Virus record (IMG/VR): IMGVR_UViG_3300030103_004816
Length of the DNA: 64,000 nucleotides
From: a virus
Strand: one strand, 5' to 3'
Under the pieces are notes generated by a model. It ran no database searches and had not been told where the DNA came from. It saw only the letters and a program-made list of their open reading frames with translations. Position numbers and translations under genes: made by a program. This document shows, in pieces, positions 15,100 through 44,810 of the stretch; positions within the stretch are counted from its first letter, which is position 1, and the number at the start of each line of letters is the position of its first letter.

Positions 15100-15155
15100 G
15101 TTTATTTTCCTCAGGGTTTGTATCTAACCTTACCTGTCTCATATCTATTTAGCTA

Positions 15156-29171: not shown

Positions 29172-29391
29172 TGTCTTTATATTCGCTTTTCAATTTTTCT
29201 ATATAGATAGTTGCATCCATCAACTCTTCTTGCAAATGAGTAAGCCAAGCTAAGAAAGATAAATCGTTTCTATCTGTGGTAGTATTATACTTCTTAGCCC
29301 CCTTCTCCTCACGTCTCTCATAAGCTTCTATAACAGATAGTACATTGCTATCACGTCTACGTTTTCTTTTAAATATTTTACTTAAATTCAC
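29164..29391 (-). CDS. Small all-alpha protein, possible NTP pyrophosphatase-like
   Basis: GAKKY and HLQEELMDATIY motifs. Confidence 0.45.
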   Translation of the reverse strand: MNLSKIFKRKRRRDSNVLSVIEAYERREEKGAKKYNTTTDRNDLSFLAWLTHLQEELMDATIYIEKLKSEYKDNE

Positions 29392-30322
29392 AATTCACCA
29401 TTATTTCTGCTAAGCAAGCAGCTAAATTTACTTCATGATCCGCTACGAAAGCAGCCTTATATTGATAGTCAGCAAGTATTAAACATAGCTGAGGTATAGA
29501 CTGAGCTTTAAACAAGTCACCAGACTTATCATATAGCTTTCTAAAGATAGTATTAGTATCATTATTAATATTTTCAGCTACCCACTTACGTACATTAGTA
29601 TAGTTTTTAGCTTTCATATTATTCATCAGATCTTTTATAGAAACTTCTTGAAGATTAGAAAGTATACCAGCATCTATTTTACCAACAACACTATACCTTT
29701 GAATCTCATTTAAGATTCTTCTCCAATCAGGGAAATGTTTTTGAATAAAAGCAGCTACTACTTTATCTTCATACTCAATACTTTCCATCTCTAAGATCTT
29801 TTTTAATCTTTCAAAGAACTCAGAAGCAAGCTTAGGCTTCTCAGCGCTTTTTATATCAAAGTCAATAACAGAACATCTGCTATGCAGAGGAGATATGATT
29901 CTATTCTTAAAATTACAAGTAAGAATAAAACCACAGTTCTTAGAATACTCTTCCATAAAGTTACGAAGAGCAGGTTGAGTAGAATTAGCGTTTAAGTAAT
30001 CAGCTTCATCTAGTATAACATATTTACGACCACCTTGAAAAGAGACCGAAGATGCGAATTGCATAATCTCAGTTCTTAGCGTATCAATATTACCAGATAA
30101 GGAGCCATTTATAATAATATAATCAGCATTAATCTCTTCGAGCATAGCTCTGGCGACAGTAGTTTTACCGACACCAGGCCCGCCCGATAATATTAGATTA
30201 GGAATATTATTATTAGCTATAAACTCTTTAAATACAGTCTTTAACTCATAAGGTAATATAGTATCATCTATTTTACGTGGACGATACTTCTCCACGAACA
30301 AAAATTCGTCACGTTGTTGCAT
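29378..30322 (-). CDS. 44: Clamp loader large subunit gp44
   Basis: VEKYRP, GPGVGKT, ILDEAD, HSRC. Confidence 0.97.
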   Translation of the reverse strand: MQQRDEFLFVEKYRPRKIDDTILPYELKTVFKEFIANNNIPNLILSGGPGVGKTTVARAMLEEINADYIIINGSLSGNIDTLRTEIMQFASSVSFQGGRKYVILDEADYLNANSTQPALRNFMEEYSKNCGFILTCNFKNRIISPLHSRCSVIDFDIKSAEKPKLASEFFERLKKILEMESIEYEDKVVAAFIQKHFPDWRRILNEIQRYSVVGKIDAGILSNLQEVSIKDLMNNMKAKNYTNVRKWVAENINNDTNTIFRKLYDKSGDLFKAQSIPQLCLILADYQYKAAFVADHEVNLAACLAEIMVNCEFK

Positions 30323-30851: not shown

Positions 30852-31532
30852 TTAGTCTCCTCTCTCAAAATTAGATTTAGCTTCAGTAGCAATCCAATAT
30901 TCCATTTTAGGACCATATGAATTACTTGAAGAAAATTTAGCGATACCCTTTTCAGATATCTCTACTATATAATTATAATTCATTAACTTTAGATTCTCAA
31001 CTTTAAATATAAATTGAAACTCATCTTTAGTTTCTCCTACCTCACTAGAATAAACATCCGCGGTAGGATTAGAAGAATCAATAGCACTTAAAGCTATCTC
31101 TCCTGAACTTCCTATAATAGCTATCTCAGGCAGACCCATTACAGAAGCTGCTCTAAGTACCTGTTGCATTTCAGCCCATGATATATCTACAGATACTTCA
31201 GGAGAAGGAAAGTTTATTTCTTTCTCAGGAGGAGTAATAATCATCTGAGGATCAGCATAGGTATAATTTATTTTCTTTTTATCTTTTTGAACAGTTACTT
31301 TCTGATCGCTAAAGAATAATTCAGGTTCATCAAACAAAGATAACACTCCTAGGAATCTATTTAAGTCGTAAATAGCTCCTTCACCAGGAAATGTTTCTTC
31401 AATAGTAGCTCTAGCCATAACAGTCTTTTGAGGTGATACAGTAGATAATACTTGCCCAGCTTTAAACTGAATAGAAGGATTAATTTGAGAATAGTTCTTT
31501 AGAACATTCATAGTATTTTCACTTAATTGCAT
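30852..31532 (-). CDS. 45: Sliding clamp gp45
   Basis: MQLSENT..VLKNY..INPSI, IYDLNRFL, YWIATE. Confidence 0.95.
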   Translation of the reverse strand: MQLSENTMNVLKNYSQINPSIQFKAGQVLSTVSPQKTVMARATIEETFPGEGAIYDLNRFLGVLSLFDEPELFFSDQKVTVQKDKKKINYTYADPQMIITPPEKEINFPSPEVSVDISWAEMQQVLRAASVMGLPEIAIIGSSGEIALSAIDSSNPTADVYSSEVGETKDEFQFIFKVENLKLMNYNYIVEISEKGIAKFSSSNSYGPKMEYWIATEAKSNFERGD

Positions 31533-31546
31533 AATATAATATCCTT

Positions 31547-32548
31547 TTATTTTTTAGAAGTTTCAGCTACAGTTTTCTTTTTAATCTTAGATTCATCAGC
31601 AGTAGCACTAGCGCCTACAGAAGCTAAGTCTCTTAATGAACCACCAAAGATCATAGACCCTACATGAGTAAGTTCCATCCAAGGGCATAACCAGACTTTA
31701 AGTCCTATATTTCTAGCCCATTGACAGAACATATAATCTTCAGATAAATATCTATTAGAGTATTCTTTTCTTTCTTCACCAGTTCTTTTTTCTGATAAGA
31801 ATTCTAATACTTCTTTCTTACCTGCTTCAGGATTCTTATCGTAGAAAGCTGTAACTTCGTTTACTACATTTAGATTCTTATCATCTATTATAGCATCAAA
31901 GTAGGCCATAATCTCTCTACTTCCATCAAATTCTGCAGTTCTTACATGGTCAGGCTTATACCATAATTGAGGATAAGCATCTCTATATTTTTCAAACGTT
32001 GCTCTTCTAATCATCATAAAACCAGTTCCACCTTCTAAAACTTCTTGAGGTTCATCTAGTCTAATCTGGTTATTACCTTGCACAGGATTGAATACATAAT
32101 CACCTACAAACTTGTTTAGTACTTGAGGGTCTTCATCAGCTACTCCTTGATCAACAGCTTGCTTAACCTTTTCCCATGATATACATTTCTTAGCATAAGG
32201 AGCACATAAGATATCAAAAGGATCACCATTATTAATATCTGGATGACCATCTGACATAGCTAACAAAGCAATAACATCATTAGCATTAAACCCTATATCA
32301 CTATCGATAAACATAAGATGCGTACAATCAGATCTCATAAATTCATCTACACAATAGTTACGGGCTCTCGTCACAAGAGACTCATTAAAGAGATAGTAAA
32401 ATTTTACCTCAATATTATGAGCTCTAGCCACAGCTGCTAGATCGTTAGTAGATTTACAGAACATTCCAGCACACTGACCTCCATACATTGGAGCAGCTAC
32501 AAAGAGTTTCTTCTTCTGCAGCTCTTCTATTTTAACTTGTAATTCCAT
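31547..32548 (-). CDS. Glycosyltransferase GT-A fold-like protein
   Basis: PMYGG, ESLVTRARN, THLMFIDSDI (DxD), GTGFMMI, YLSEDYMFC. Confidence 0.7.
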   Translation of the reverse strand: MELQVKIEELQKKKLFVAAPMYGGQCAGMFCKSTNDLAAVARAHNIEVKFYYLFNESLVTRARNYCVDEFMRSDCTHLMFIDSDIGFNANDVIALLAMSDGHPDINNGDPFDILCAPYAKKCISWEKVKQAVDQGVADEDPQVLNKFVGDYVFNPVQGNNQIRLDEPQEVLEGGTGFMMIRRATFEKYRDAYPQLWYKPDHVRTAEFDGSREIMAYFDAIIDDKNLNVVNEVTAFYDKNPEAGKKEVLEFLSEKRTGEERKEYSNRYLSEDYMFCQWARNIGLKVWLCPWMELTHVGSMIFGGSLRDLASVGASATADESKIKKKTVAETSKK

Positions 32549-32988
32549 TACTCACCTATTTTGACTATTACTAATTCAGCTACTTCTGATCCAGGCTGAA
32601 TAAAAGCTTCTCCACCATTTATAATAAGTTGACCAGATACTAATCCTTTATAGCCAGGTTCTAGTAAACTACTTACTACGCTACAACCACCAGCTAACAT
32701 CTCTGTAGGTGTAACTAGATAACCAACATGCCCTTCAGGCACATTAGCATATACGTCACTAGTAAATTCATAACTACCAGGGAACATATGATAGATCTCT
32801 CTTTTCTTTTCTGGGTCACCAGGATCAATCATAGTCTGTATTTCATAAGTTTCTCTTTCGAGCTTTTGATCATCAGTAATAACAAAAGGATTACCTTGAA
32901 ATCCTCTTATTGTTTTAGCGTTAACTGGTACTGAAAAACCAGTAGAATCATCTACACCGTTAACGTGCTTAATTGGGTCTACTAACAT
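32548..32988 (-). CDS. Degenerate dUTPase-fold protein
   Basis: PGSYEF, SLLEPGYKG, VAEL parallel to neighbour; motif 2 RS missing. Confidence 0.6.
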   Translation of the reverse strand: MLVDPIKHVNGVDDSTGFSVPVNAKTIRGFQGNPFVITDDQKLERETYEIQTMIDPGDPEKKREIYHMFPGSYEFTSDVYANVPEGHVGYLVTPTEMLAGGCSVVSSLLEPGYKGLVSGQLIINGGEAFIQPGSEVAELVIVKIGE

Positions 32989-32997
32989 TATATACTC

Positions 32998-33489
32998 CTA
33001 AATATATTTTTTATCATGTTCTTTCGATAAACCATAATCACCATCATATAGTTTAAGACTTTCGGCATCAAATAATAAGAACTGACCGAGTCTAGTTCCT
33101 TTCTTAACTCTAAACAAGCCACCATTTACATGTAATGCACCTGCCATGACTCCTTGATACCCTGAGTCATATAGTCCTGAAGTTATAAACACTCCGTTTC
33201 TATTTAAAGTTGATCTTGTAATAACAAATCCTGCTTCACCAGGAGCTATAGTTACAATATTCTGAAAAGTTATTTCGTAAGAGCCAGGTTTAAGATTAAA
33301 GTATCCATCCTCATCGGACGCGAGCACTTTACTGCCTCTATGCAATTTTTGATCTTCGTCTAAAACAAAGTCTTTATGATTAAGTTCAAATATTTTATCA
33401 AGTCTTAGATCGACTGCATTAGGTTGAATATCTTGAGGTAAGACATTCGATAGTTTAGATTCATTTTTATCACTTGCGATATTCTTCAT
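32998..33489 (-). CDS. Trimeric dUTPase/dCTP deaminase-family protein
   Basis: QPNAVDLRL, RSTLNRNG, GLYDSGYQG, RLGQF, YDGDYG. Confidence 0.85.
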   Translation of the reverse strand: MKNIASDKNESKLSNVLPQDIQPNAVDLRLDKIFELNHKDFVLDEDQKLHRGSKVLASDEDGYFNLKPGSYEITFQNIVTIAPGEAGFVITRSTLNRNGVFITSGLYDSGYQGVMAGALHVNGGLFRVKKGTRLGQFLLFDAESLKLYDGDYGLSKEHDKKYI

Positions 33490-33492
33490 AAT

Positions 33493-34119
33493 TTATCCAA
33501 AGTAGTAAGGGTTCTCTTTTGTGGTAAAGCTAGGCCCTTCATTCATTATATACTCTTTAAAGTCCAAAGTCCATATCTTATTCGGAATTAAAGGTTCAGC
33601 ACCAGGGAATTTGGTACTACTAATATTTAGCTTACTATCAACAAATAGAGGAGAAATTTCGTTACGAAATAATTTTATATCTCCGTCTACATATCTTAAG
33701 CAAGCAAACGTTCCATCTACGTCGTTTAGAGATTTATCTTCAATCAACCAATCATGAAGTAAACCAGTATCCCATTTAAGGTCACTGGAAAGAGCACTTT
33801 GCATCTCTTCAACAAAGTTCTCTTTTAGAATACCGTTGTGCCATAGAAGATCATGTCCATCGTTACGATCGCTAGGATGAATACTTTCTATGGCCGAAGC
33901 CTCGGTAGTAGGAGCTTGGATGTGAGCGACGTAATACATCCCAGCTGTTAGCTCAACATTATCTAAGCTAAACCGCCCCATACATTTCTGCTTCGTTAGC
34001 AACTTTTTAGTGTTCGGGCTATATTCAGATATTGAGAAGCTTCTTTCACCTCTATAAGAGTTTAATAAAGCTAACTCCTTGAGTTTATTAACTTCAAACG
34101 ATCCAAATATTGCACACAT
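33493..34119 (-). CDS. Class II (Ntn) glutamine amidotransferase
   Basis: MCAIFG N-terminal Cys, RG, H.QAPT, HP, HNG, DT, GTFA. Confidence 0.85.
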   Translation of the reverse strand: MCAIFGSFEVNKLKELALLNSYRGERSFSISEYSPNTKKLLTKQKCMGRFSLDNVELTAGMYYVAHIQAPTTEASAIESIHPSDRNDGHDLLWHNGILKENFVEEMQSALSSDLKWDTGLLHDWLIEDKSLNDVDGTFACLRYVDGDIKLFRNEISPLFVDSKLNISSTKFPGAEPLIPNKIWTLDFKEYIMNEGPSFTTKENPYYFG

Positions 34120-34121
34120 AT

Positions 34122-34886
34122 TTAACTAATCTCATGTTTCGAGACAGCTAGACTCCAATCAAAGGAATCAACATAAGGTATAGGATCCTTATGACCTGCC
34201 TTTATAAAATTCATTACTCTTTCAGCACATGAAGGACATGTACCGCATGACTTATCTCCATCAGGATTATAGCATGTTATAGTACTAGAAAGCAACTCTA
34301 ATTTACCCATATCTTCAGCTATTTCAATTTCTTGCTTTTTACTTAGCTGACTAAAAGGAGCTACTATTTCTACTTTAAAGGTTCTATTCTGACTAGCAAC
34401 TGCATTAAGACTATCTACAAACTTCTGAGACGTATCCCAATAACCATATTCATCATGAACTTGCAGCCCAGTAAAGACATGAGAAGCTTTAGCAACTTCT
34501 GCTACTGACATAGTTAAAGATAACATAATCAGATTTCTAAAAGGTACATAGGTAGGTGGCTGCGGGTCGCCAAGGACGTCTTTTATATCTGGCATTTCCA
34601 CGCTTGTGCCACCTATGTTCGCTGACATAGGTTTAGCTATATCGCCAAGAATACTTAAGTCAAGTATCTTATGACGTATACCAAGTTTGTTACATAGTTC
34701 AAAAGCTTTCTCTAACTCTACTCTCTGCTTCTGACCATAATCATAACTTACAGCAGATACTCTATCTTTACCATATTTTTCTACTAGCATCATAGTCATA
34801 ACAGAAGAATCAAGTCCTCCTGAAAGTACTGCTAATACATTCTGATTAGTATCAGGTAAATTATTTAAAGCTTCAGTTAGATTCAT
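34122..34886 (-). CDS. queC: 7-cyano-7-deazaguanine synthase
   Basis: SGGLDS, YGQK, TYVPFRN, TCY...CGTCPSC. Confidence 0.95.
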   Translation of the reverse strand: MNLTEALNNLPDTNQNVLAVLSGGLDSSVMTMMLVEKYGKDRVSAVSYDYGQKQRVELEKAFELCNKLGIRHKILDLSILGDIAKPMSANIGGTSVEMPDIKDVLGDPQPPTYVPFRNLIMLSLTMSVAEVAKASHVFTGLQVHDEYGYWDTSQKFVDSLNAVASQNRTFKVEIVAPFSQLSKKQEIEIAEDMGKLELLSSTITCYNPDGDKSCGTCPSCAERVMNFIKAGHKDPIPYVDSFDWSLAVSKHEIS

Positions 34887-35076
34887 TTAGTACCTTTATT
34901 CCCATTACATAATTTTCTGCTGCATTCTCTGCCCATATCTCTGCTTTACCAGGATATGTTTCCTTTGCAACTTCTTTTCCGTCTATAAAAAATACAGCTC
35001 CATAACAACCATTCTCTACGAAAGTTCTAGCTGTTTTTTCACCGTCCATATATTCACTTAAAAATGTTTCGCTCAT
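34873..35076 (-). CDS. Hypothetical protein
   Basis: Coupled ORF, AENAAENYVMG motif. Confidence 0.6.
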   Translation of the reverse strand: MSETFLSEYMDGEKTARTFVENGCYGAVFFIDGKEVAKETYPGKAEIWAENAAENYVMGIKVLNESN

Positions 35077-36008
35077 TATTGCCTCGCTGTTTTTCTATGA
35101 GGTATATCTGCCTCAACTAAAGTAGAAGCTATCTTATCTATTAGATCTTGCGAAGTAGCTCTGATAGGATTAATATCTATACCACCTCTTCTAGTATATA
35201 AGCATGCTACTAATATTTCAGTATCATCTTCTAATATATCTCTTAGTCTTTTAAATATACACTCACATATTTCCTCATGGAAATGATTCTCTTTTCTCAT
35301 ACTAACTATATACTTCATAAGAGATTCAGGAGTAACACAATCTTCTCCTTCTATATGAATATATACATCACCCCAATCAGGCTGGTTAGTAATTCTACAA
35401 TTAGATCTTAATGCACTAGATGTAACCTGAAAAGGCATAAAGCCAAGCATAGGAGCATGCTCTAGTATTTTAGGATCTTCTTCGTATTCAACAAATTCTA
35501 TATCATCTTGTTCTATAAGAGACTCTAATCTAACAAAGTGACCTTTGATAGGAGCAGCAGGTAGTTCATTCTCATCATCATAATGGAACCAAACATCTAC
35601 ATCACACTCTAAAGCATCTCTTAGATCATCTTCTATCATTTGCTTAGCTTTGACTATAGCTCTAGTTAAACTATTACCAAACCTATGCATATTAAATGAG
35701 TTAAGATATAACTTTAACGATTTAGATTCAACTATACATTCACTATCAGACGGGTATACTATTTTTACTACACCGCTAACAGGGAATCCATTATCTAATA
35801 AAAATGATACTTCGTAACAGTTCCAGGTATCAAAACCTACAAACGGTAAATCATCTTCATTAATATTATATTCTTCTCTATTAAGTACTCTTGGTACCGG
35901 AACAAGCAAGCTTTTATCAGCTCTATCAGGAGTAACATAAGGCTTAACTATAGAGCCGTCTCCTGCTTTACCTAAATGTTTACTAACAATTTTATCTAAT
36001 TTTTTCAT
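35076..36008 (-). CDS. queF: NADPH-dependent preQ0 reductase (bimodular QueF)
   Basis: ESKSLKLYLNSF QueF motif, SNCRITNQPDWG, HFHEE, YTRRGGIDINP. Confidence 0.95.
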   Translation of the reverse strand: MKKLDKIVSKHLGKAGDGSIVKPYVTPDRADKSLLVPVPRVLNREEYNINEDDLPFVGFDTWNCYEVSFLLDNGFPVSGVVKIVYPSDSECIVESKSLKLYLNSFNMHRFGNSLTRAIVKAKQMIEDDLRDALECDVDVWFHYDDENELPAAPIKGHFVRLESLIEQDDIEFVEYEEDPKILEHAPMLGFMPFQVTSSALRSNCRITNQPDWGDVYIHIEGEDCVTPESLMKYIVSMRKENHFHEEICECIFKRLRDILEDDTEILVACLYTRRGGIDINPIRATSQDLIDKIASTLVEADIPHRKTARQ

Positions 36009-36532
36009 TTTATTACCTTCATTATTTGATCTAGTCTTTCTCTAACAGATCCAGATACTCTAACTATCTCTCTAGGCATTTCACTAATATAGCCTTCAAA
36101 TAATTCTACTATCTCATCTCTAAAGCTAGGATCAATTGATCTCACACCATCATCTACTATTTTAAACTCAGGTGGTATATAAAATATATAATCATATTCA
36201 TGTATAATCTTATCGTAGATAGCTTTTACTATATCAAGAGTATCTTTACTAACCTTTTTATGTAGATGTAAATAAGCAGTATATACTAATCCATCTAAGG
36301 CAGTTCTATCAGTTAACATATCATTATACATGAATACATTGAATACATGCTTTTGCATGATTAGTTCTTGCGTTAAGTCAGAACCAGCTTCATTTATATC
36401 TAGTCCTAATTTAATAAGCTCTCGAGTCACTTCATCGCATATAGCATACGTCTTAAATTTTTTCTCAGACCTTAACGCGTTAAGTAAAGTAGTCTTACCT
36501 ACTGATTGAGCACCAGTTATTCCTATCTTCAT
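36005..36532 (-). CDS. P-loop nucleotide kinase (AAA_28/NadR-like)
   Basis: GAQSVGKTT, DRTALD, DDGVR. Confidence 0.8.
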   Translation of the reverse strand: MKIGITGAQSVGKTTLLNALRSEKKFKTYAICDEVTRELIKLGLDINEAGSDLTQELIMQKHVFNVFMYNDMLTDRTALDGLVYTAYLHLHKKVSKDTLDIVKAIYDKIIHEYDYIFYIPPEFKIVDDGVRSIDPSFRDEIVELFEGYISEMPREIVRVSGSVRERLDQIMKVIK

Positions 36533-37038
36533 ACTTTACCTATCAAAAATGATGACCATAAATTTATAGCCAGTTGTCTTAATTCTTCTATCAAATCTTT
36601 CTCACTTATACCTTTCTTAATATCATGAACAGCTACCATTTGAGTCTCACCAGTATCTACACCTTCATCTACTTGATGAATAACAACACCAGTACTATCT
36701 AAGCCTAACTCTAAAGCTTTCTTCTGAGGATCTTTACCTCTTAGTTCAGGATACTTAATAGTATCACCAGGATGAACGTTATACATAGTCTTAGATATAG
36801 CAGCTTCAGGTACAATTCTATTATAACCATGCAAGGTTACAAAAGGATCATCGTCAGCGCAAGCAATTAACCAATCATGTATATCTTTTGCTTCCATATA
36901 AGATACTTTACTTCTTAAACGCTCATCAATTTTAGTAACTTCAAATTGATTAGTAACTATATGATCAGGCTCTTTACCTAACGTATCTATAACTGAAGCT
37001 AGTTCGCTTCCTGAATGACTAAAAATTGCTACCCACAT
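36529..37038 (-). CDS. PurN-like formyltransferase (candidate DpdN)
   Basis: FSHSGS, LHGY, NVHPG, GVVIHQVDEGVDTG. Confidence 0.85.
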   Translation of the reverse strand: MWVAIFSHSGSELASVIDTLGKEPDHIVTNQFEVTKIDERLRSKVSYMEAKDIHDWLIACADDDPFVTLHGYNRIVPEAAISKTMYNVHPGDTIKYPELRGKDPQKKALELGLDSTGVVIHQVDEGVDTGETQMVAVHDIKKGISEKDLIEELRQLAINLWSSFLIGKV

Positions 37039-37823
37039 ATATTTTCTCTAAACTTTAACATATTATAGAATACACTATACTGATGTTCAACCTTTTCTTC
37101 CATTAAAGTAAACAATTTAACTGACTCTTTATCATTTAAACCAAATACTCCATCTTCTAATTCTTCGTACTTAATATTTTTCATACCATGCACTACAGGA
37201 TTAGAAGTATCAATAGTATCAATCCAGTCATACTCTTTATATGCTGTAAACTCCTGAGGTAAACCAGCTCCTAATAGATGATGATCTTTCTCAGTGTTTA
37301 TTATATTCTTATCTAACATATCACTAAGTAATTTTTGCCTACCTTTCATCCATGATACGTATTTATTCTCTTCATCAGGAAATAAATCTTCATAATAACT
37401 ATAGTCAAATGATATAGCAATTATATCTGCATTTTCATTCATATAATTATAGCATTCGATTATTTCATCCCAATCTTTACCTTGAACAACACCAATTTTG
37501 AGACCTGGTAAGTCTTTATATCGTTCCATCCATGAACTAAAGTTCTTAATTGTTGTATCTTTCTGTTCCAATGCATCTGGTACGATATAAGCAGAAGGTT
37601 TTAATTGCTTTATCCAAGCAGCAAACTCATCCGCATTGAAAGCCTCACCAAGCTCAAAAATTGAATTATCAAGAATAGTATATCTACCTTTCTTTTTAGC
37701 TTCTACGAAGTGATTATAGTATGCAGGAAGTTCTTCAAAAAGATGAACTAATGCATAATCATAGTCAGTACTTTCACTGACCTTATCGATTATATCTAAA
37801 GGTGCTTCGTGGGCTATTCTCAT
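37029..37823 (-). CDS. TGT/DpdA-like TIM-barrel protein (candidate DpdA3-type)
   Basis: ILDNS, VPD, GVVQG, HLLG, IDTS motifs in TGT order; located inside que cluster. Confidence 0.7.
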   Translation of the reverse strand: MRIAHEAPLDIIDKVSESTDYDYALVHLFEELPAYYNHFVEAKKKGRYTILDNSIFELGEAFNADEFAAWIKQLKPSAYIVPDALEQKDTTIKNFSSWMERYKDLPGLKIGVVQGKDWDEIIECYNYMNENADIIAISFDYSYYEDLFPDEENKYVSWMKGRQKLLSDMLDKNIINTEKDHHLLGAGLPQEFTAYKEYDWIDTIDTSNPVVHGMKNIKYEELEDGVFGLNDKESVKLFTLMEEKVEHQYSVFYNMLKFRENICG

Positions 37824-38062
37824 TCGAAATAATTTTCTACTATATCTACTAGTTCTTTGTATTCAGCTATTTGTTTAAACTCATGCTCTAAAGAAGACAT
37901 TATATCAGGATGGTCAGCTACACCAACTTGCTTTTGTAATAATACTTCTACATTCAAAACGTGCTTAGAGATATTAGCTGTAAATAATTGTTTACTAGCT
38001 GATAGTAATTCATCTCTAAGATCTACTTTATTAACCTCTACAGGTTTCTGTTCAATACTCAT
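37820..38062 (-). CDS. Hypothetical protein
   Basis: NVEVLL...VGVADHPDI motif. Confidence 0.65.
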   Translation of the reverse strand: MSIEQKPVEVNKVDLRDELLSASKQLFTANISKHVLNVEVLLQKQVGVADHPDIMSSLEHEFKQIAEYKELVDIVENYFE

Positions 38063-38802
38063 TATCCTTTTCCTCCAGCATACTGCTGTTGTAGCATGAT
38101 ATCATCGAAGAACTCCTTCTTAACATCAGCATCATTAAATCTACCTTTGAGTACGGTAGTCTGGGTTAGAGAAGAATGAGCCATAATACCTCTATTCTCA
38201 CAACAACCATGAACTGCATGAATATAAACAGCTAGGTCTTCAGTCCCAGTTGCAGCTTGCAGCTCTTTTACAATTTCATTACATAATTGTTCTTGCAAAG
38301 TACCTCTTCTAGCTACCCATTGAGCTATTCTAGTATACTTTGATAATCCTATAACCATTTTATCAGGTATAATACCAATATAAGCTATACCTACTACAGG
38401 TTGATGATGATGAGAGCACATAGATCTAAGTTCAGATCTTACTACTAACATTCCATCATACTTATTATCATCTTCATTAGGGAATGCAGTAGCAGCAGGC
38501 TTCTCAAAATAACGACCTCTCATTAGCTCGTTAATATACATCTTAGCTAAACGTCTAGGAGTACCCATAGCATTAGGATCGTTCTTCCAATCAATAAGTA
38601 ATCTAGTAAGCACTTCTTCAAATGCTTCCGATACTTCGTCTATAAGTTTATCTCTACCAGACTCGGTAAGAATTTCTGCTATATTATCATTAGACCAGGC
38701 TCGTAAGCCTTTCTCTTTTATCATCTTCCAATATAGCTCATGTACTTTATTATCAGTCATAGCTGTATTATAACCTATTTGCTTATCACTTTCAACTGTC
38801 AT
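38062..38802 (-). CDS. folE: GTP cyclohydrolase I
   Basis: TPRR, SMCSHH, GLSK..R, LQE, HGC...RG. Confidence 0.96.
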   Translation of the reverse strand: MTVESDKQIGYNTAMTDNKVHELYWKMIKEKGLRAWSNDNIAEILTESGRDKLIDEVSEAFEEVLTRLLIDWKNDPNAMGTPRRLAKMYINELMRGRYFEKPAATAFPNEDDNKYDGMLVVRSELRSMCSHHHQPVVGIAYIGIIPDKMVIGLSKYTRIAQWVARRGTLQEQLCNEIVKELQAATGTEDLAVYIHAVHGCCENRGIMAHSSLTQTTVLKGRFNDADVKKEFFDDIMLQQQYAGGKG

Positions 38803-39250
38803 TTGGTTCTCTCCTATAAATAGCTGAATTAGCACCATGCTCCATTACTTCACAAGATACACAATAGCATCTTCCACCTGATTTTCTTTCGACTACTTCA
38901 TTAGCTTTTACCCATGCATGATATGCAAACTTTTCGCATCCTACTCCATCCATAATAACTATGTCTATTAGTCCTTTTTTATCTAATAATATAAAATCAT
39001 CCATAGCTGGATCATCTTTATCTACAGCAGTCTTATGATCAAAATTATCTTTAAGCCATTTTTTTAGCTCTCCTAGATCACCAAAATCAACTGCCCAGTT
39101 CTTATTATCTAATTCTGTAGCCGCAAAGACAAACCTAAATGCTAAAGCATAACCATGTATAAGACTACAATGACTATGCGTAGCATTAGGCTGTCTGAAA
39201 GCACATGAGAGGCCTGACTCATGCCCGTATGTTTTTGTACTTAAATACAT
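38792..39250 (-). CDS. queD: 6-carboxytetrahydropterin synthase
   Basis: HCSLIHGY, VDFGDL, FDH, GCE. Confidence 0.92.
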   Translation of the reverse strand: MYLSTKTYGHESGLSCAFRQPNATHSHCSLIHGYALAFRFVFAATELDNKNWAVDFGDLGELKKWLKDNFDHKTAVDKDDPAMDDFILLDKKGLIDIVIMDGVGCEKFAYHAWVKANEVVERKSGGRCYCVSCEVMEHGANSAIYRREPNDS

Positions 39251-39622
39251 CTATGCTCCTATAATGTAAATTATTAATGCGTAAGTTAAAAAATGTAGAT
39301 ACTGATCAACGCCTTGAAGTATCCAATAATATGTTTGACTATCAGTTAGTTTATATTTTTTCCATATATTACTTTTTACGTAATCAATATGGTAATGAAT
39401 AACACCATCTATTATAGCTAATATAACTGCTAAAAAGTTACTTACTAAAAAAGGTATTAAAACTAACGCTGTTCCTATAGCGTGTGAGCTCGCATGAGCT
39501 ATTCCACCAGGTGCTCCATATTCAGATTTATCTCTTATCATCCACATACGTTGCAAAAAATAATCCGCTATAGTATGCTTAAGCATTAATAAAATAAATA
39601 CTAATAATAATTGTTCATACAT
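39251..39622 (-). CDS. DUF3307-like membrane protein
   Basis: H..ADY.LQ, H...H, HYHIDY.K, DQYLH. Confidence 0.8.
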   Translation of the reverse strand: MYEQLLLVFILLMLKHTIADYFLQRMWMIRDKSEYGAPGGIAHASSHAIGTALVLIPFLVSNFLAVILAIIDGVIHYHIDYVKSNIWKKYKLTDSQTYYWILQGVDQYLHFLTYALIIYIIGA

Positions 39623-39624
39623 AA

Positions 39625-40095
39625 TCACTTGTCCTCCCACCAGAACTTATACCAGCTCTTCTCCTTTGAGCGTTGTATAGATAGGTCAAAAAAATCAACC
39701 ATCAGTTCTTGATCTGAATTATAAATTAAAGAAGCAATACTTATATTATCTTTAGGAAAATCGCCCCAAGATTCAAAGAGCGTTTTGATAGTTTGACCTG
39801 AGTCAACTATATCATCTATTATAAGATACTTTGCTCCATTATTCAAGTCTTCTGGTATCCATTCTACTATTTCTTTTTCACCAGAATCCCTCGTTGACCA
39901 TACTAAAGGTGTTACTGGTATATCTAACTTATGAGATAGAAACACTGCAGGTATTAAACCACCTCTAGATAATCCTATTATTCTACTATAAGGACTTCCT
40001 ACAGCCATTATATTGTTGTATATCTTTTCGATACCTTCTTCAAACGCTTCATGACCGTAAACGATCTCTTTCTTTTTAAACATAATATTACTCAC
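39625..40095 (-). CDS. Purine phosphoribosyltransferase (Gpt-like)
   Basis: GLSRGGLIPA, LIIDDIVDSGQT PRPP motif, FWWE terminus. Confidence 0.9.
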   Translation of the reverse strand: MSNIMFKKKEIVYGHEAFEEGIEKIYNNIMAVGSPYSRIIGLSRGGLIPAVFLSHKLDIPVTPLVWSTRDSGEKEIVEWIPEDLNNGAKYLIIDDIVDSGQTIKTLFESWGDFPKDNISIASLIYNSDQELMVDFFDLSIQRSKEKSWYKFWWEDK

Positions 40096-41113
40096 TTAAA
40101 AATTTTACTCTGTCTCCAAATCCTTTAATTATTTTTAATTCCTCTAAAGGTTTGTGGTTATCACCTCTCTTCTCATCATCTGCATAGTGATGTTCAGTTC
40201 TATCCCACCAATCGAAGCCATGGAGCCAGACTTCATAATTCTGTTTTAAATAATAATCTATTGCTATAAGACCAGTACTTGGAGCTTTTAGCCCGTAGTA
40301 GTTAAAGTCTTCTATTTTATGAACCACTTTTCTTCTATCAGTTAATTTTTTAAATAGATCACATTCATTTTCATTAAACCAGCTATGGCAAATGACATTA
40401 TCAAATTCATTAATATCTTCTATATGTTTATCCATGCAAGTAAACCATACATTAGTTTTACTGCCTGTATACTTTTCGTATCCTTTAGTAGTAAAAGAAT
40501 TAAATCTTACTACTTCATCAAATGAATCTATTTCTTCTCCTAACTCTTTATCAAGAATAGAAGTTCCGTTACCTACTAATAAAACTTTCTTTTGTTTAGT
40601 ATACCAAGTAACTAATACTAATCTTTTTCCTTTAGTAACTTTACTTACACTATGAAATACATTATGTTCATATTCAATAGTCTCACCAACTTCTTGTTTA
40701 ACTATTACAGGTATAATTGGATCACCTGGAGTATAATCACCGTCTCTATATCTATTAAGTACATCAGGAGTAACATCCCAATCAAGCTTATAGTGAGGTT
40801 CGTAAATTATAATATCACCACCCTCTAGGTCTTCTACATCTACTAATGTAATAGCAGTTTTAAATATCTCATCATTATTATCCGTATGAAGTCTAGTAAA
40901 AGAGTTTACTGGATACTCTAAAAAATATTGAGAGTATATGCTAAATCCATCTCTATTGAATTCTTGCATCCAATTATCTCTAGGTATATCTGCTTTATAG
41001 AGATAATGCAAATTATAATATCTTTTTACTTTCTGTTTTTCAAGACTATTATATAAGTTTTTTAAAACTTCAATATCTACAGGTGTACTTACTTGCTTAT
41101 AATAATCAGACAC
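40088..41113 (-). CDS. Fusion of 2OG-Fe(II) oxygenase and GT29 (sialyltransferase-like) domain
   Basis: HTD...GG...HSVSKVTKGKRLVLVTW, then VGNG...LGEEIDSFDEVVRFN...GSKT, PSTG, GFD, HY...H. Confidence 0.8.
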   Translation of the reverse strand: MSDYYKQVSTPVDIEVLKNLYNSLEKQKVKRYYNLHYLYKADIPRDNWMQEFNRDGFSIYSQYFLEYPVNSFTRLHTDNNDEIFKTAITLVDVEDLEGGDIIIYEPHYKLDWDVTPDVLNRYRDGDYTPGDPIIPVIVKQEVGETIEYEHNVFHSVSKVTKGKRLVLVTWYTKQKKVLLVGNGTSILDKELGEEIDSFDEVVRFNSFTTKGYEKYTGSKTNVWFTCMDKHIEDINEFDNVICHSWFNENECDLFKKLTDRRKVVHKIEDFNYYGLKAPSTGLIAIDYYLKQNYEVWLHGFDWWDRTEHHYADDEKRGDNHKPLEELKIIKGFGDRVKFLSE

Positions 41114-41993
41114 CTATTAGGTTCCCCCATAAGTAAGTATGTACTCTAGCTGATACATTATAACCTCTCTGAAATGCTTCTTTAGCTACATCACCATCAC
41201 ATAGCTTCTGACCTTCTACTGTAGCTCCTACAGGCATAATCCATATAGGCCAATCTACATGATAGTCTCTAAACATCTCTATAGTTTCTTCTAACTCTTT
41301 CCAAGTTTCTGGTTTGCCATCAACAACAAATTTAAGCTGACCTCTATTAGTAAACATCTGATATCGTTCTACTACTTCAGGTCTTATAGCTCTTTTTCTT
41401 AGCTCACCAGATACATTATGTAATTTAGGACTGCATGATATAAATAGTTCACTGCCCCATACATCTCTATACTCCTGCCAGAACTCTATTACTTCAGGTC
41501 TTATAGTTTGAGTACCATTAGTTTCATAAGTAACATACCTAGGATAATCTCGTTCTTCTATCCAATGCTTCATCATATTCATACTACATATTTGAGCATG
41601 CTTCATAAAAGGTTCACCACCAGTAAAACACATATGTCTTTCACCCCATCTACCTTTATTATATTTGTTAGTAAACGCATCTCTTACTTTATTAGCTATT
41701 TCTACAGCAGTACCATTATGAGTTAAATGCTTAAATTTTTTAGACCATGAATAAGAACTATCACAGCCAAATTCCCAGACGGGTAAATCTTCCATACGAT
41801 TAACTTCTATTATATCAAAGTCTTTATATGGTAGTTTATAAGTAGAAGGATCAGTAGGGTCATCTTGACCGAAACCATTACATTGTAAGTTACATAAAAA
41901 GAATCTTAACCATGCGGTAGGATATCCAGTATAATGACCTTCACCTTGAATAGAATCAAATATTTCAGAATAAGCGTATGTTTGTTCGCTCAT
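41106..41993 (-). CDS. queE: 7-carboxy-7-deazaguanine synthase (radical SAM)
   Basis: EIFDSIQGEG, CNLQC...CDS, TGGEP, ETNGT, SPKL, RVH. Confidence 0.94.
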   Translation of the reverse strand: MSEQTYAYSEIFDSIQGEGHYTGYPTAWLRFFLCNLQCNGFGQDDPTDPSTYKLPYKDFDIIEVNRMEDLPVWEFGCDSSYSWSKKFKHLTHNGTAVEIANKVRDAFTNKYNKGRWGERHMCFTGGEPFMKHAQICSMNMMKHWIEERDYPRYVTYETNGTQTIRPEVIEFWQEYRDVWGSELFISCSPKLHNVSGELRKRAIRPEVVERYQMFTNRGQLKFVVDGKPETWKELEETIEMFRDYHVDWPIWIMPVGATVEGQKLCDGDVAKEAFQRGYNVSARVHTYLWGNLIGV

Positions 41994-42526
41994 AGTTCCT
42001 CTTTAATTTGTTTAACCCAATCCATTATTCTAAACGGAGAGAGTGTTGGTTCGTTATCTTCATCTATAGCTAATCCATAAAAGGTGTTCTCATCTTTAAG
42101 TCCGTTAGACTTATCAAATTTAAAACCTTGAGTAGAAGTTAGCCCTATCAACCTTCCGCCATTCTTTAAAACTACTTCAGCTAACATACCTAATCCATCT
42201 ACAAAATTATCTGCATACCCTACTTGGTCTCCTAGACCATATAAAGCAACAGTTTGTCCGGTAAAATCTATCTTGCTAAATCTTTCATAAGATTCATTCC
42301 AATCATCAGAATATTCGCCATAAGTATCTAGTCTTGGTTCACACCAAGTTGGAGTTCCAAGTATAAGCAAGTCAGCTCTCCAATCATCAGGAGAGGTATG
42401 ATCTACTTTTACTAGGGAATATGTTTTAGGTTTGAAATGAGTTATTATATCTTCACCGATTGACTTAGTAAAGCCAGTTTCAGTACCATATATTAACTTT
42501 AAATTTATCTCGGACTTGAGATCCAT
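41990..42526 (-). CDS. fldA: Long-chain flavodoxin
   Basis: GTETGFT, GTPTW, GLGDQVGYADNFVDG, GLAIDEDN. Confidence 0.93.
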   Translation of the reverse strand: MDLKSEINLKLIYGTETGFTKSIGEDIITHFKPKTYSLVKVDHTSPDDWRADLLILGTPTWCEPRLDTYGEYSDDWNESYERFSKIDFTGQTVALYGLGDQVGYADNFVDGLGMLAEVVLKNGGRLIGLTSTQGFKFDKSNGLKDENTFYGLAIDEDNEPTLSPFRIMDWVKQIKEEL

Positions 42527-42531
42527 ATAAG

Positions 42532-42567
42532 CTCCTAGTTTTATTTAAAATGTGGAAGGGCACATTT
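42532..42567 (-). promoter_or_regulatory. Leader hairpin with A-rich tail, reminiscent of preQ1-I riboswitch
   Basis: AAATGTG-CCCTTC-CACATTT-TAAATAAAACTAGGAG directly upstream of flavodoxin-queE. Confidence 0.35.
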
Positions 42568-42573
42568 GATATT

Positions 42574-43098
42574 CTATTTAGCTAATCTAGCTGCCTTCTT
42601 TATTAATCTTAATACTTTTTTCCATTTACGTTTAAATCTTTCTAAATGTATAGGATGAGCACGAGTAAAATATTCAATTCCATTTAGGTGATCTAACTCA
42701 TGCTGAAAAACTCTTGCGGCCATACCATCAAACTTTTTAGTACAGACATTCCCATATGGGTCTTTAAATCTTACCCTAATAAATCTTGGTCTTTTTATTT
42801 TTACATAAACACCAGGATAGGATAAACATCCTTCATCCATAGTTATATCTTCTTCGCCGAAGTATGTTATAACCGGATTATAGCAAACCATAGGAGGTTC
42901 TGAATACATACAAAACACTCTTGCTTGTACTCCTATCTGGTTAGCCGCAAGCCCTACACCCTTACCATCTTTCATAGCATTTATAAGTGTATGAGATAAC
43001 TCAACTGGGTCAGTAGAAGGGTTATCAAAATCAAAGTCAGGCATCACTGCTCTGAGCATATCATTATTATCACCTATTGGTATTATAGTTTTACTCAT
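42574..43098 (-). CDS. def: Peptide deformylase
   Basis: GVGLAANQIG, EGCLS, QHELDHLNG. Confidence 0.95.
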   Translation of the reverse strand: MSKTIIPIGDNNDMLRAVMPDFDFDNPSTDPVELSHTLINAMKDGKGVGLAANQIGVQARVFCMYSEPPMVCYNPVITYFGEEDITMDEGCLSYPGVYVKIKRPRFIRVRFKDPYGNVCTKKFDGMAARVFQHELDHLNGIEYFTRAHPIHLERFKRKWKKVLRLIKKAARLAK

Positions 43099-44810
43099 TA
43101 TGCTATTCTAGAAAAGGATTTAACTTTCTCAAACTTAATTACGTTTGTAAATTTATCTATAAGGGTATCACCTTTATGACTTATTATAAACACGTTAGTA
43201 TCAGAAGTCAACTCCTTTAAGAGTTTTAAAAACTCATCAGTACCTGAAGCATCTAAAGATGAATCAAATACTTCATCCATTATTAATAAATTAGTAGATG
43301 CACTATTTCTAATCTTAGCTATAGATCTCCAAGTAAATAAAAGAGCTAAATCTATTCTCATTTTTTCACCTTCAGAAAAAGAAGCATAAGAGAAATCATC
43401 TCTAAATCTAGATCTTATAGTTTCGTTAAACGATTCATCTAATTCAAACTGAACAAAGAAGTCCATGGCAGCAAGATACTTATTAATTAACTTATTCATA
43501 ATAGGTACATATTGTCTTATTATCTTAGTTTTTATTCCTGAATCTTTTAGTATAGTAGATACAACTCCTAATACATTTCTCTTATTTACTTCTTCTACTT
43601 TTATTAATAAGTTACTTTCTTTTTTCTTTTCAAAGGTATCGAGTTGCTTTAAGTTCTTAGCTTTATTTCCGCCAACATCTTTTAAGTTAGCATTCTCTTC
43701 TAGGAGTTTATTAATACTATCATTCAACGTTCTCTCTTTCCACGAGAGCTCTTTAATAGTATTCTGCAAAGAAATGACCTCTTGTTGACTAGTCATTATT
43801 TCTTCCATTCTATCTTCAGCTGATTTAAGTTCTTCTTGCAGCTTCTCGATACCTTCATTAATCTCTTCTACTTTTTTATTATGATCACAAACAATCTCTT
43901 CTTTAAACTCTGCATCTATATCTTGACCACAAGCATCACAGCTATCATTCTCTTCATAAAAGACTACTCTCTTCTTTAAATCTAATATTTTACTGTTAAG
44001 CTTTACTCTTACTTCTTTTAGTTTTTCATATCGAGATTTGACTGTATTCTGATCGTCTATACTCTTATTAAGATCATCTACTTTAGTAGCTAAATCATTA
44101 GATGTCCCTTGCAGAGCCTTTATCTCCCGCTTATTTTCTTCGACCGTAGATAGATTACTCTGTATCTTAGAATTGTTATCAGCTTCAAGGCTCTCCAAGT
44201 GCTCTTCAGTTAGAGCAATCTTCTCTTCTAACATTTTAACTGTATATTCTACTTCAGTTAATTCCTTTTCATTAGAGTTTATTCTATCTTTAAGTAGAGT
44301 ATTCATAGTAGAGAATATTTGAAGGTCTAATAAGTCTTCTATAACTTCTCTTCTATGCATAGATGAAAGCTGCATGAATGGTATAAAAGAAGTAGAACCT
44401 AATACTACTACTTGACTGAAAGCTTTATGAGTTAGTTTTATTATCTGCTTTTCAAGAAACTCTTGATAGTCTCTAGCATTAGCATCTTGATTAATTAGTT
44501 CACCATTCTGCCATATTTCAAATATATTAGGTTTAGCTGCTCTTACTATCTTATAGATATGCTTACCTACTTGAAATACTAATTCAACCCTCATATCTTT
44601 CTTATTGATAGAGTTAATTAATTGACTTTTATTTACTTTACGAAATGGTTTACCATATAGTGCAAATGATAAAGCATCAAGGAAGGTTGATTTACCAGCA
44701 CCATTATCACCTATTACTAATGTAGTAGGGTTTCTATCGAGCTGTAATTCAGTATATACATTACCAGTAGAAAGAAAGTTTTTCCACTTTAGAGTTTTAA
44801 ATTTTATCAA
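43098..44810 (-). CDS. 46: Recombination ATPase gp46 (Rad50/SbcC-like)
   Basis: GDNGAGKST, CDAC hook, FSEGEK, LIMDEVFD. Confidence 0.97.
   Translation of the reverse strand: MIKFKTLKWKNFLSTGNVYTELQLDRNPTTLVIGDNGAGKSTFLDALSFALYGKPFRKVNKSQLINSINKKDMRVELVFQVGKHIYKIVRAAKPNIFEIWQNGELINQDANARDYQEFLEKQIIKLTHKAFSQVVVLGSTSFIPFMQLSSMHRREVIEDLLDLQIFSTMNTLLKDRINSNEKELTEVEYTVKMLEEKIALTEEHLESLEADNNSKIQSNLSTVEENKREIKALQGTSNDLATKVDDLNKSIDDQNTVKSRYEKLKEVRVKLNSKILDLKKRVVFYEENDSCDACGQDIDAEFKEEIVCDHNKKVEEINEGIEKLQEELKSAEDRMEEIMTSQQEVISLQNTIKELSWKERTLNDSINKLLEENANLKDVGGNKAKNLKQLDTFEKKKESNLLIKVEEVNKRNVLGVVSTILKDSGIKTKIIRQYVPIMNKLINKYLAAMDFFVQFELDESFNETIRSRFRDDFSYASFSEGEKMRIDLALLFTWRSIAKIRNSASTNLLIMDEVFDSSLDASGTDEFLKLLKELTSDTNVFIISHKGDTLIDKFTNVIKFEKVKSFSRIA

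Follow-up and report, generated by a model that had tools for sequence, protein, structure and literature searches.

A T4-like phage module of the formyl-preQ1 type and a candidate route to base exchange before replication

Complete replacement of a canonical base in DNA is rare, and how phages equipped with the transglycosylase DpdA3 attain 100% replacement is unsettled, because the published proposal, which places the exchange on DNA, is without biochemical support and DpdA3 was inactive in the assay of its authors (PMC10516641). Is guanine swapped for a 7-deazaguanine in finished DNA, or is a modified nucleotide made first and then polymerized? The question is raised by a run of 18 genes (positions 32548-42526, minus strand) in IMG/VR virus record IMGVR_UViG_3300030103_004816, of which a stretch of 64,000 nucleotides (hereafter the window) was analyzed. 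This run, referred to below as the module, encodes DpdA3 together with enzymes of 7-deazaguanine synthesis, a P-loop kinase and a candidate nucleotide pyrophosphatase. The reading favored here, with a probability of roughly 0.55, is that the base would be exchanged on a free deoxynucleotide, or possibly a deoxynucleoside, as opposed to DNA. It is drawn from gene content, modeled folds and the comparison of related loci.

Identity and setting of the module

The window is a single long series of minus-strand genes and includes a T4-type replication set (Table 1). The clamp loader gp44 and clamp gp45 flank the module on one side and gp46 and gp47 on the other, and the polymerase gp43, UvsX and the gp41 helicase are present as well. 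Given this gene set, the identity of gp43 to cyanomyovirus polymerases (51-52% at most) and a GC content of about 33%, the source is, as judged from its genes, an uncultured marine T4-like phage. The module is bordered by gp46 and a peptide deformylase gene on one side and by a glycosyltransferase-like gene and gp45 on the other. It is unbroken, with no intergenic gap above 10 nucleotides (nt) and with overlaps between most genes, which bears out the tight coupling described in a first-pass annotation of this DNA. All genes listed in that annotation (folE, queD, queE, queC, queF, a PurN-like gene, a TGT-like gene, a phosphoribosyltransferase (PRTase), a kinase and two genes of the dUTPase fold) are present where it placed them, and the queF that it called intact has its motifs legible in the sequence (ESKSLKLY, the Cys of CRITNQPDW, and HFHEE). 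Beyond that list, the run holds a glutamine amidotransferase (GATase)-like gene, a flavodoxin, a DUF3307 protein, a fusion of a 2-oxoglutarate (2OG) oxygenase with a GT29-like domain, and two small open reading frames (ORFs). By megablast, no GenBank phage matched the 10-kb region.

Table 1. Features of the module and its T4-type surroundings, in window coordinates (aa, amino acids; CDG, 7-carboxy-7-deazaguanine)
Feature	Coordinates	Strand	Matches and remarks
gp43, polymerase	24221-26719	-	
gp44, clamp loader	29378-30322	-	
gp45, clamp	30852-31532	-	
Paralogue B, degenerate dUTPase fold, 146 aa	32548-32988	-	BLASTP against protein A E 1.8e-15, 27% identity; NF002598 weak
Protein A, dCTP deaminase (DCD)/dUTPase fold, 163 aa, candidate for dGTP to dGMP	32998-33489	-	PF22769 E 6.6e-16
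Class-II N-terminal nucleophile (Ntn) GATase-like protein	33493-34119	-	starts MCAIFG; phrog_12378 E 1e-44
QueC (CDG to preQ0)	34122-34886	-	PF06508 E 2.1e-50
Small ORF, 67 aa	34873-35076	-	conserved in 6 related loci
QueF, two-domain (preQ0 to preQ1)	35076-36008	-	PF14819 E 5e-31; PF14489 E 7e-19
AAA_28 P-loop kinase, candidate for modified deoxynucleoside or nucleotide	36005-36532	-	PF13521 E 4.4e-18; phrog_2107
DpdN, PurN-like formyltransferase	36529-37038	-	PF00551 E 1e-12; 43% to immuto DpdN
DpdA3-type 7-deazaguanine transglycosylase, 264 aa	37029-37823	-	TGT fold, zinc subdomain missing
Small protein, 80 aa	37820-38062	-	phrog_1811 E 1.8e-19; overlaps dpdA3, directly upstream
FolE, GTP cyclohydrolase I	38062-38838	-	PF01227 E 1.4e-38
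QueD, 6-carboxytetrahydropterin synthase	38792-39250	-	PF01242 E 1.1e-14
DUF3307 membrane protein	39251-39640	-	PF11750 E 1.1e-12; phrog_2470; between QueD and PRTase
Gpt-like purine PRTase	39625-40095	-	PF00156 E 4.5e-11; NF006613 50 bits, under cut-off
2OG-Fe(II) oxygenase and GT29 (sialyltransferase-motif) fusion, 341 aa	40088-41113	-	PF00777 E 1.9e-13, residues 173-225
QueE, 7-carboxy-7-deazaguanine synthase	41106-41993	-	phrog_2076 E 1.7e-54; NCBIfam QueE models match N-terminus
Flavodoxin	41990-42526	-	PF00258 E 4.7e-11; overlaps queE start by 4 nt
Conserved operon leader, 47 nt	42527-42573	-	between deformylase stop and flavodoxin start
gp46 and gp47	43098-45865	-	

The chemistry of the module can be read from cultured relatives. 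The DNA of Flavobacterium phage immuto_2-6A was found by liquid chromatography-mass spectrometry (LC-MS) to contain 345,000 residues of 7-(formylamino)methyl-7-deazaguanine (fdPreQ1) in each 10^6 nucleotides, with no dG, and the DpdA3 group was founded on the proteins of immuto_2-6A, CP220 and phiST (PMC10516641). Seven genes are common to the window and the immuto_2-6A locus (DpdA3 57%, DpdN 43%, QueF 46%, FolE 40%, QueD 37%, kinase 34% and PRTase 30% identity), and both have the core order dpdA3-dpdN-kinase-queF with the PRTase gene upstream. Because the immuto_2-6A locus has the same genes and core order and its fdPreQ1 has been measured, the window module is very probably a diverged, T4-borne member of the fdPreQ1 system. 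The formyl-preQ1 assignment that the first-pass annotation had made from DpdN and a divergent DpdA is well supported by the seven matching genes. The two loci also differ. The backbone of immuto_2-6A is of the PolA type, whereas that of the window is T4-like, with a gp43 51% identical to cyanomyovirus polymerases; a PRA-PH/MazG-like hydrolase stands in immuto_2-6A where the window has a DCD-fold pair; the window has in addition a separate GATase-like gene, a flavodoxin, a DUF3307 protein and the oxygenase-GT29 fusion; and the DNA chemistry has been measured in immuto_2-6A, while the window phage is known from its genes alone. The cluster is thus a new T4-like member of a system already described, and interest beyond that lies in the mechanism proposed for it.

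The Campylobacter CP220 group (dADG, 100% of G) and the Cellulophaga phage phiST (dDG, 100% of G) share with the window a DpdA3 homologue, a P-loop kinase adjoining it and a nucleotide hydrolase nearby. Their pathways end at CDG-derived bases, without QueF or DpdN, both of which the window has, and their families differ from those of the window: an HD-AAA_33 protein together with AAA_28 in CP220, and AAA_18 together with MazG in phiST. Phages with DpdA1 or DpdA2, such as Enterobacteria phage 9g, and bacteria with DpdA/DpdB have the TGT superfamily, the catalytic Asp motifs and the preQ0 genes in common with the window. In phage 9g, however, dG+ accounts for about a quarter of G, so that replacement is partial, and it takes place demonstrably on DNA. 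The DpdA1/DpdA2-type proteins are also longer (317-413 aa) than the DpdA3 of the window (264 aa).

The proposed route and the genes that carry it

The steps from FolE to the exchange by DpdA3 are well supported by family assignment. FolE, QueD and QueE, the last with its own flavodoxin, would convert GTP to CDG; QueC, with ammonia supplied by the GATase-like protein, would yield preQ0, from which QueF would make preQ1; DpdN would place a formyl group on the aminomethyl group; and DpdA3 would swap guanine for the deazapurine. The favored reading concerns the molecule on which this swap would occur. The DCD-fold pyrophosphatase would cleave dGTP to dGMP, both draining the dGTP pool and giving the substrate, and DpdA3 would replace the guanine of dGMP with preQ1 or formyl-preQ1. 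The AAA_28 kinase would phosphorylate the product, nucleoside diphosphate kinase of the host would complete the triphosphate, and the gp43 polymerase would incorporate it. Released guanine would be turned by the Gpt-like PRTase into GMP and GTP and so feed FolE.

The DpdA3 of the window is found by tblastn to be 56.7% identical to that of immuto_2-6A over 98% of the query (E 3e-86), 39% identical to that of the CP220 group (E 5e-47) and 26.6% identical to CGPG_00065 of phiST (E 4e-6). Its AlphaFold model (predicted local distance difference test (pLDDT) 94.2) is matched by Foldseek with a probability of 1.00 to the TGT-type (beta/alpha)8 barrel, and VIA-align gives Z scores of 17.2 to the archaeal enzyme ArcTGT (1iq8), 17.0 to TGT (4hvx) and 16.7 to DpdA (7ui4); the alignments cover about 226-229 residues, with a root-mean-square deviation of about 3 Å. 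The protein has no Pfam match, and since a sequence-profile search of the PDB gave no TGT match, its link to TGT is one of fold comparison only. Two aspartates, D52 (LDNSIFE) and D205 (DTSNP), are invariant across 28 homologues and align with LDSGAFS and CDSSS of 9g DpdA1; they are equated with D102 and D280 of TGT by motif likeness, as opposed to a residue-level structural alignment. Longer forms of DpdA3 in a set of 5.8 billion proteins comprise fusions to QueF, insertions of the homing-endonuclease or intein type and one uncharacterized form, and none among them is a fusion to a kinase. The natural DpdA3-QueF fusions are of 531-568 aa (metagenomic proteins P0121, P0122 and P0126). They suggest that preQ1 is handed from the reductase straight to the transglycosylase, and show only that a free base is delivered to DpdA3, which nucleotide-level and DNA-level models need alike.

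A kinase accompanies DpdA3 with great constancy. Among the best 80 IMG/VR loci with a DpdA3 50-96% identical to that of the window, 62 have at least 2.5 kb downstream, and all 62 carry a kinase-type gene downstream of dpdA3, which is AAA_28 in 45 and DUF3310 in 17 and never both. The gene lies 0.07-1.4 kb from dpdA3 in 61 of these loci and 2.8 kb away in the remaining one. The window kinase is 34-37% identical to the DpdA3-adjoining kinases of immuto_2-6A and CP220-group phages and is matched by AAA_28 only, not by the T4 gp1-type (PF21448) or DUF3310 models. The best fold match of its own model (pLDDT 90) is the ribosylnicotinamide kinase (RNK) domain of NadR (Z 18.1/16.5), followed by deoxynucleoside kinases including human dGK (15.4-16.3) and dTMP kinases (14-15). 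In more distant DpdA3 lineages a kinase likewise stands directly beside DpdA3. Phage CP220 has AAA_28 and an HD-AAA_33 fusion there, phiST has AAA_18, Chryseobacterium phage MA9V-3 has AAA_18/33, and Bacillus phage BSTP12 has a P-loop protein. A deoxynucleoside monophosphate (dNMP) kinase of the T4 gp1 type (PF21448) adjoins a DpdA3-like gene in Vibrio phage D479 and in Aeromonas phage Ahp1. Rhizobium phage RHph_I1_18 encodes a fusion of the DpdA3-like domain with DUF3310, and a DCD-like gene comes after it.

In the 17 loci with DUF3310, which are mostly T4-like, the protein takes the slot of AAA_28 between dpdN and queF. Four of these proteins were examined (L015, 11298-11561; L082, 11282-11548; L027, 7552-7914; L041, 6783-7061); their loci have no PRTase (0/4), and three of the four have a preQ0/preQ1 transporter of the YhhQ/Vut_1 type and three a PRA-PH/MazG-like hydrolase. 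The kinase gp1.7 of T7, whose substrates are dGMP and dTMP, has the DUF3310 domain (PMC12846349, PMC10700055), and the PHROGs label of the DUF3310 proteins is 'nucleotide kinase'.

Loci with DpdA1, the type that gives partial replacement, served as a control. Within 3 kb of dpdA in phage 9g and 16 related IMG/VR loci (17 in all), neither AAA_28 (0/17) nor a small ORF with a Walker A motif (0/17) was found. DUF3310 occurs in 1/17, the most divergent of the control loci (L116, IMG/VR 3300014325_000037; 40% identical to 9g DpdA), where it and a PRTase stand upstream of dpdA at a distance of 2-4.5 kb. Kinases of the AAA_28 family are not confined to phages with DpdA3, since a 262-aa neighbor of a kinase homologue in Streptomyces phages, considered as a hidden DpdA3 and rejected, is an FkbM methyltransferase. 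Kinase homologues of this kind (26-30% identity) overlap an FkbM-type gene that directly precedes them in Streptomyces phage Yaboi (L090, 6217-7615) and in about 88 related records, large Streptomyces phages without DpdA3. The FkbM-type methyltransferase and the AAA_28 homologue may form another nucleotide-level modification pair.

The second, nearly constant neighbor is a pyrophosphatase acting on deoxynucleoside triphosphates (dNTPs), as far as its families indicate. Of 32 long loci, defined by at least 6 kb on either side of dpdA3, 30 have such a gene, PRA-PH/MazG-like in 27 and DCD-like in 3, never both; an HD domain in CP220 and MazG in phiST stand in this role. In the window it is protein A, whose RSTLNRNG (the phosphate-binding R-S-x motif) and LYDSGY (with the catalytic Asp) are conserved in all five homologues. 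Protein A has not been filed as a dCTP deaminase or a proven dUTPase, because the deaminase Glu of the Mycobacterium tuberculosis DCD (2qxx) aligns with Ala and its equivalog scores are below threshold (97 against 130 bits for NF002598, a model of archaeal-type dUTPases, and 45 against 93 for TIGR02274). Paralogue B has no Pfam match and reads TPTEMLAGG and LLEPGY in place of the R-S-T motif and the motif of the catalytic Asp; it is probably not an enzyme on its own and may assist protein A in a regulatory or structural role.

The DCD-like type is restricted in distribution. Only four homologues of protein A occur among 50,697 GenBank phage records, and all four phages hold a divergent, unannotated DpdA3-like gene (E 5e-12 to 6e-5 with a DpdA3 profile), while the enzyme is not seen in hundreds of other T4-like phages in GenBank. 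In three of the four, the DpdA3-like gene lies upstream of the DCD-like gene, either next to it or with only a kinase gene between the two. The run of DpdA3-like gene, PF21448 kinase and DCD-like gene is found in Vibrio phage D479 (L091, 3606-5941) and Aeromonas phage Ahp1_CNU-2021 (L096, 4554-6537); the other two are RHph_I1_18 (L092, 3723-5507) and Vibrio phage Bakedbeans (gp191 and gp197; L097/L099). QueE is present in three of the four and QueD in three, and FolE lies within 2-4 kb in three. These four cultured phages probably have modified DNA, to judge from their genes.

Exchange before or after replication

Kinase families that are unrelated yet interchangeable, dNTPase families that are likewise interchangeable, and a fusion, taken together, usually mark steps that a single pathway requires. 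Since family swapping and fusion signal required steps, a chain from dGTP to dGMP, exchange, phosphorylation and polymerization fits the data. A dedicated dNTP pyrophosphatase and a kinase are linked here to the base-changing enzyme, as they are in pre-replicative systems, namely the hydroxymethyl-deoxycytidine (hm-dC) system of T4 (gp56 dCTPase, gp42 and the gp1 dNMP kinase) and the Z-genomes (MazZ, PurZ and DatZ). The logic proposed for the module is the same: a canonical dNTP is destroyed, the monophosphate remade, phosphorylated and polymerized. These two systems are, to our knowledge, the only precedent for complete base replacement, and by analogy with them complete replacement is what a route through the dNTP pool would be expected to give. 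The central step is not homologous to theirs, being here a base exchange by a TGT fold, and we know of no case in which a TGT fold has been shown to exchange a base on a free nucleotide. ADG nucleoside has been reported in cells infected by CP220 (as cited in PMC10516641). The wider proposition, in which DpdA3 would be the first TGT-superfamily enzyme to exchange bases on free deoxynucleotides, with replacement before replication, a dGTPase feed by DCD or MazG proteins, a dedicated kinase and a deazapurine-sensing leader that gates the operon, seems to us about as apt to hold as to fail.

The strongest alternative is the published model, in which the polymerase uses dGTP and DpdA3 swaps every guanine in finished DNA for preQ1 or formyl-preQ1. 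The PRTase and kinase would then recycle guanine to GMP and GDP for FolE, and the dUTPase-fold or MazG-like proteins would serve pool sanitation. On the evidence below we consider it the less probable of the two. A number of points speak for it or weigh against exchange on a free nucleotide. All characterized TGT-family enzymes known to us act on polynucleotides, and the catalytic motifs of DpdA3, on the same TGT/DpdA fold, are the same as those in DNA-acting DpdA. An argument for a small-molecule substrate from net charge, isoelectric point and cysteine count was dropped, because DpdA3 and 9g DpdA1 are both acidic and both without the CxCxxC...H zinc site. One guanine would be freed per exchange and one GTP spent per deazapurine, so recycling would be sensible; T7 gp1.7 and T4 gp1 phosphorylate dGMP, so the kinases equally suit guanine recycling. 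The best folds of the window kinase are nucleoside kinases, so the exchange could be at the nucleoside level, and the closest solved relative of protein A is a probable dUTPase (E 7e-12), so the protein could just clear dUTP. The DUF3310-only proteins, at 87-120 aa, are putative kinases. Moreover, the 62 loci are kin and their counts are not independent events, for which six to ten lineages is a fairer figure. The sole DpdA3 paper proposes post-replicative insertion, following from the presence of DpdA in every modified phage (PMC10516641). The literature of late 2025 still treats 7-deazaguanine as a DNA-level modification, and a 2025 paper uses DpdA as a textbook example; no mechanistic study of DpdA3 after 2023 was found in literature searches.

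On the other side, the host already owns Gmk and Gpt, yet a kinase-type gene is near dpdA3 in all 62 loci, and four unrelated families serve in that position. The recycling PRTase itself is missing from 12 of the 32 long loci. The DpdA1 phages, which exchange on DNA, are without these neighbors, and the DCD-like enzyme occurs only in phages with a DpdA3-like gene. In addition, DpdA3 gave no activity in the E. coli DNA-modification assay of the authors, whose attempts were unsuccessful (PMC10516641). The free-base delivery shown by the DpdA3-QueF fusions is needed by this model too.

A further alternative is salvage at the ribonucleotide level, which the first-pass annotation had offered as one variant of its pre-replicative route. 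The PRTase would join preQ1 or formyl-preQ1 to phosphoribosyl pyrophosphate, the kinase would make the diphosphate, and ribonucleotide reductase (RNR) would give the deoxy form for the polymerase, with DpdA3 left to clear residual G from DNA or to act on RNA. A purine PRTase and a kinase in one overlapping gene run are what this alternative would have, but a homologue of the PRTase is found in only 20 of the 32 long loci and is missing from CP220, phiST and the DUF3310 lineage as well, while DpdA3 and the kinase are constant. In some of the loci without a PRTase, a preQ0/preQ1 transporter of the YhhQ type is present instead. The parts of the window that were examined showed no RNR gene, and a modified ribonucleotide pool would be expected to enter RNA too. 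We consider this alternative improbable. For the PRTase, recycling of guanine is a role no less fitting than salvage of a deazapurine, and recycling fits both the nucleotide-level and the DNA-level model. A co-occurrence of PRTase, kinase and DpdA-like genes, which had been put forward as a check, holds across the IMG/VR loci for the kinase and DpdA3 and only in part for the PRTase. The pre-replicative route of the first-pass annotation fares similarly: the comparative linkage of kinase and dNTP pyrophosphatase speaks for it, whereas the non-universal PRTase, the nucleoside-kinase folds nearest to the window kinase and the post-replicative proposal in the literature keep it tentative.

It is very improbable that the module serves queuosine in host or phage tRNA without any DNA modification, for although FolE, QueD, QueE and QueC together with QueF make up the bacterial preQ1 pathway for tRNA and some relatives have a YhhQ-type preQ0/preQ1 transporter, the transglycosylase is a DpdA3, a group whose cultured phages have all G of their DNA replaced, it has no Pfam TGT match, DpdN has no role in queuosine, and the cluster shows no Tgt of the tRNA type.

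Operon leader, remaining genes and implications

The run opens with a short conserved leader. A hairpin (AAAUGUG-CCCUUC-CACAUUU, 42567-42548) is followed by an A-rich linker and by AAAACUAGGAG (42542-42532), and the AUG of the flavodoxin gene (42526) follows six bases on. The CUUC of the loop is able to pair with the GGAG of the Shine-Dalgarno sequence, which would give a pseudoknot of the H type, as in preQ1-I riboswitches. A search with the pattern GTGCCCTTCCAC-N(8-30)-AACTAGGAG gave 61 matches in IMG/VR, and together with the window and loci collected earlier there are 42 distinct leaders. Outside the fixed GUG/CAC, the three variable pairs of the stem are paired in 42/42, 42/42 and 41/42 of these, with five to six pair types each, a clear compensatory variation; because core and tail are set by the search pattern, this covariation tests the outer stem only. 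The gene after the leader is queE in 30, flavodoxin in 4 and queD in 4 of the distinct cases (38 of 40).

Like the preQ1-I riboswitch (RF00522), the leader has a short hairpin and an A-rich tail whose final ...AACUAGGAG leads into the Shine-Dalgarno sequence, and it precedes que genes. Unlike that riboswitch, it has a loop of 6 nt (the invariant CCCUUC), and the usual ligand-binding loop is missing. Rfam gave no match at gathering score in the whole window and none at E<=10 in a 201-nt search. Because Rfam is unmatched and the loop is too short for a canonical aptamer, the element is called here a conserved que-operon leader. As judged from its structure and position, it is able to hide the ribosome-binding site and probably controls translation of the operon.

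Of the genes for preQ1 synthesis, all five (FolE, QueD, QueE, QueC, QueF) are encoded and apparently intact by Pfam and PHROG matches. Their NCBIfam scores are under the equivalog cut-offs (227 against 293 bits for QueF), as expected for diverged phage copies. The flavodoxin is likely the electron donor to the radical-SAM enzyme QueE, a role that follows from the known flavodoxin dependence of QueE. In DpdN, the catalytic Asn-His-Asp set is kept, with N-x-H (NVHP) and VDEGVDTG in line with the PurN positions, and a dpdN homologue is present in 75 of 84 compared loci. The GATase-like protein is assigned by its N-terminal Cys and an Atlas features search that led to viral GATase_6/7 clusters at 0.95-0.97; BLAST matched it significantly neither to the Gat domain of 9g Gat-QueC nor to BSTP12_048. 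In phage 9g and Bacillus phage BSTP12 the Gat domain is fused to QueC, whereas in the window it is a separate gene coupled to queC. Because QueF comes next, the stand-alone protein probably supplies ammonia to QueC for preQ0 rather than for the archaeosine base.

The closest solved relatives of the PRTase are 1vdm (E 4e-9) and E. coli XGPRT (E 8e-6). The oxygenase-GT29 fusion has a weak match to PF09859 and one to phrog_61, and the one lead from an Atlas search, PhyH, is weak (0.86); the fusion is kept in nine related loci between the PRTase gene and queE. Base J and TET-type hypermodification follow this logic of a hydroxylase paired with a glycosyltransferase, and by that analogy the fusion may add a further decoration to the DNA. 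Elsewhere in the window (12361-16349, minus strand), two large proteins have cytidylyltransferase-like PHROG matches (912 aa, phrog_3041; 397 aa, phrog_455). These and the glycosyltransferase-like genes at 31547-32548 and 40088-41113 may belong to a shared sugar-nucleotide pathway. The DUF3307 protein, of which just four related loci have one, may have a role in transport of the free base, since relatives have a YhhQ-type deazapurine transporter instead. Of the two small ORFs, the 80-aa protein has a counterpart in gp207 of immuto_2-6A (about 66 aa), which occupies the same place upstream of dpdA, and the 67-aa ORF has no match among Pfam and PHROG families.

Exchange on a free deoxynucleotide can be tested on cultured phages such as immuto_2-6A, CP220, phiST and D479, given that the kinase and dNTPase families are locked to DpdA3 and that a natural DpdA3-DUF3310 fusion exists. 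If it is true, TGT-fold enzymes would have a new class of substrate, and genomes with 7-deazaguanine would count, along with hm-dC and Z-genomes, among the replacements made at the level of the nucleotide pool. The enzymes would also give an enzymatic route to 7-deaza-dGTP analogues.

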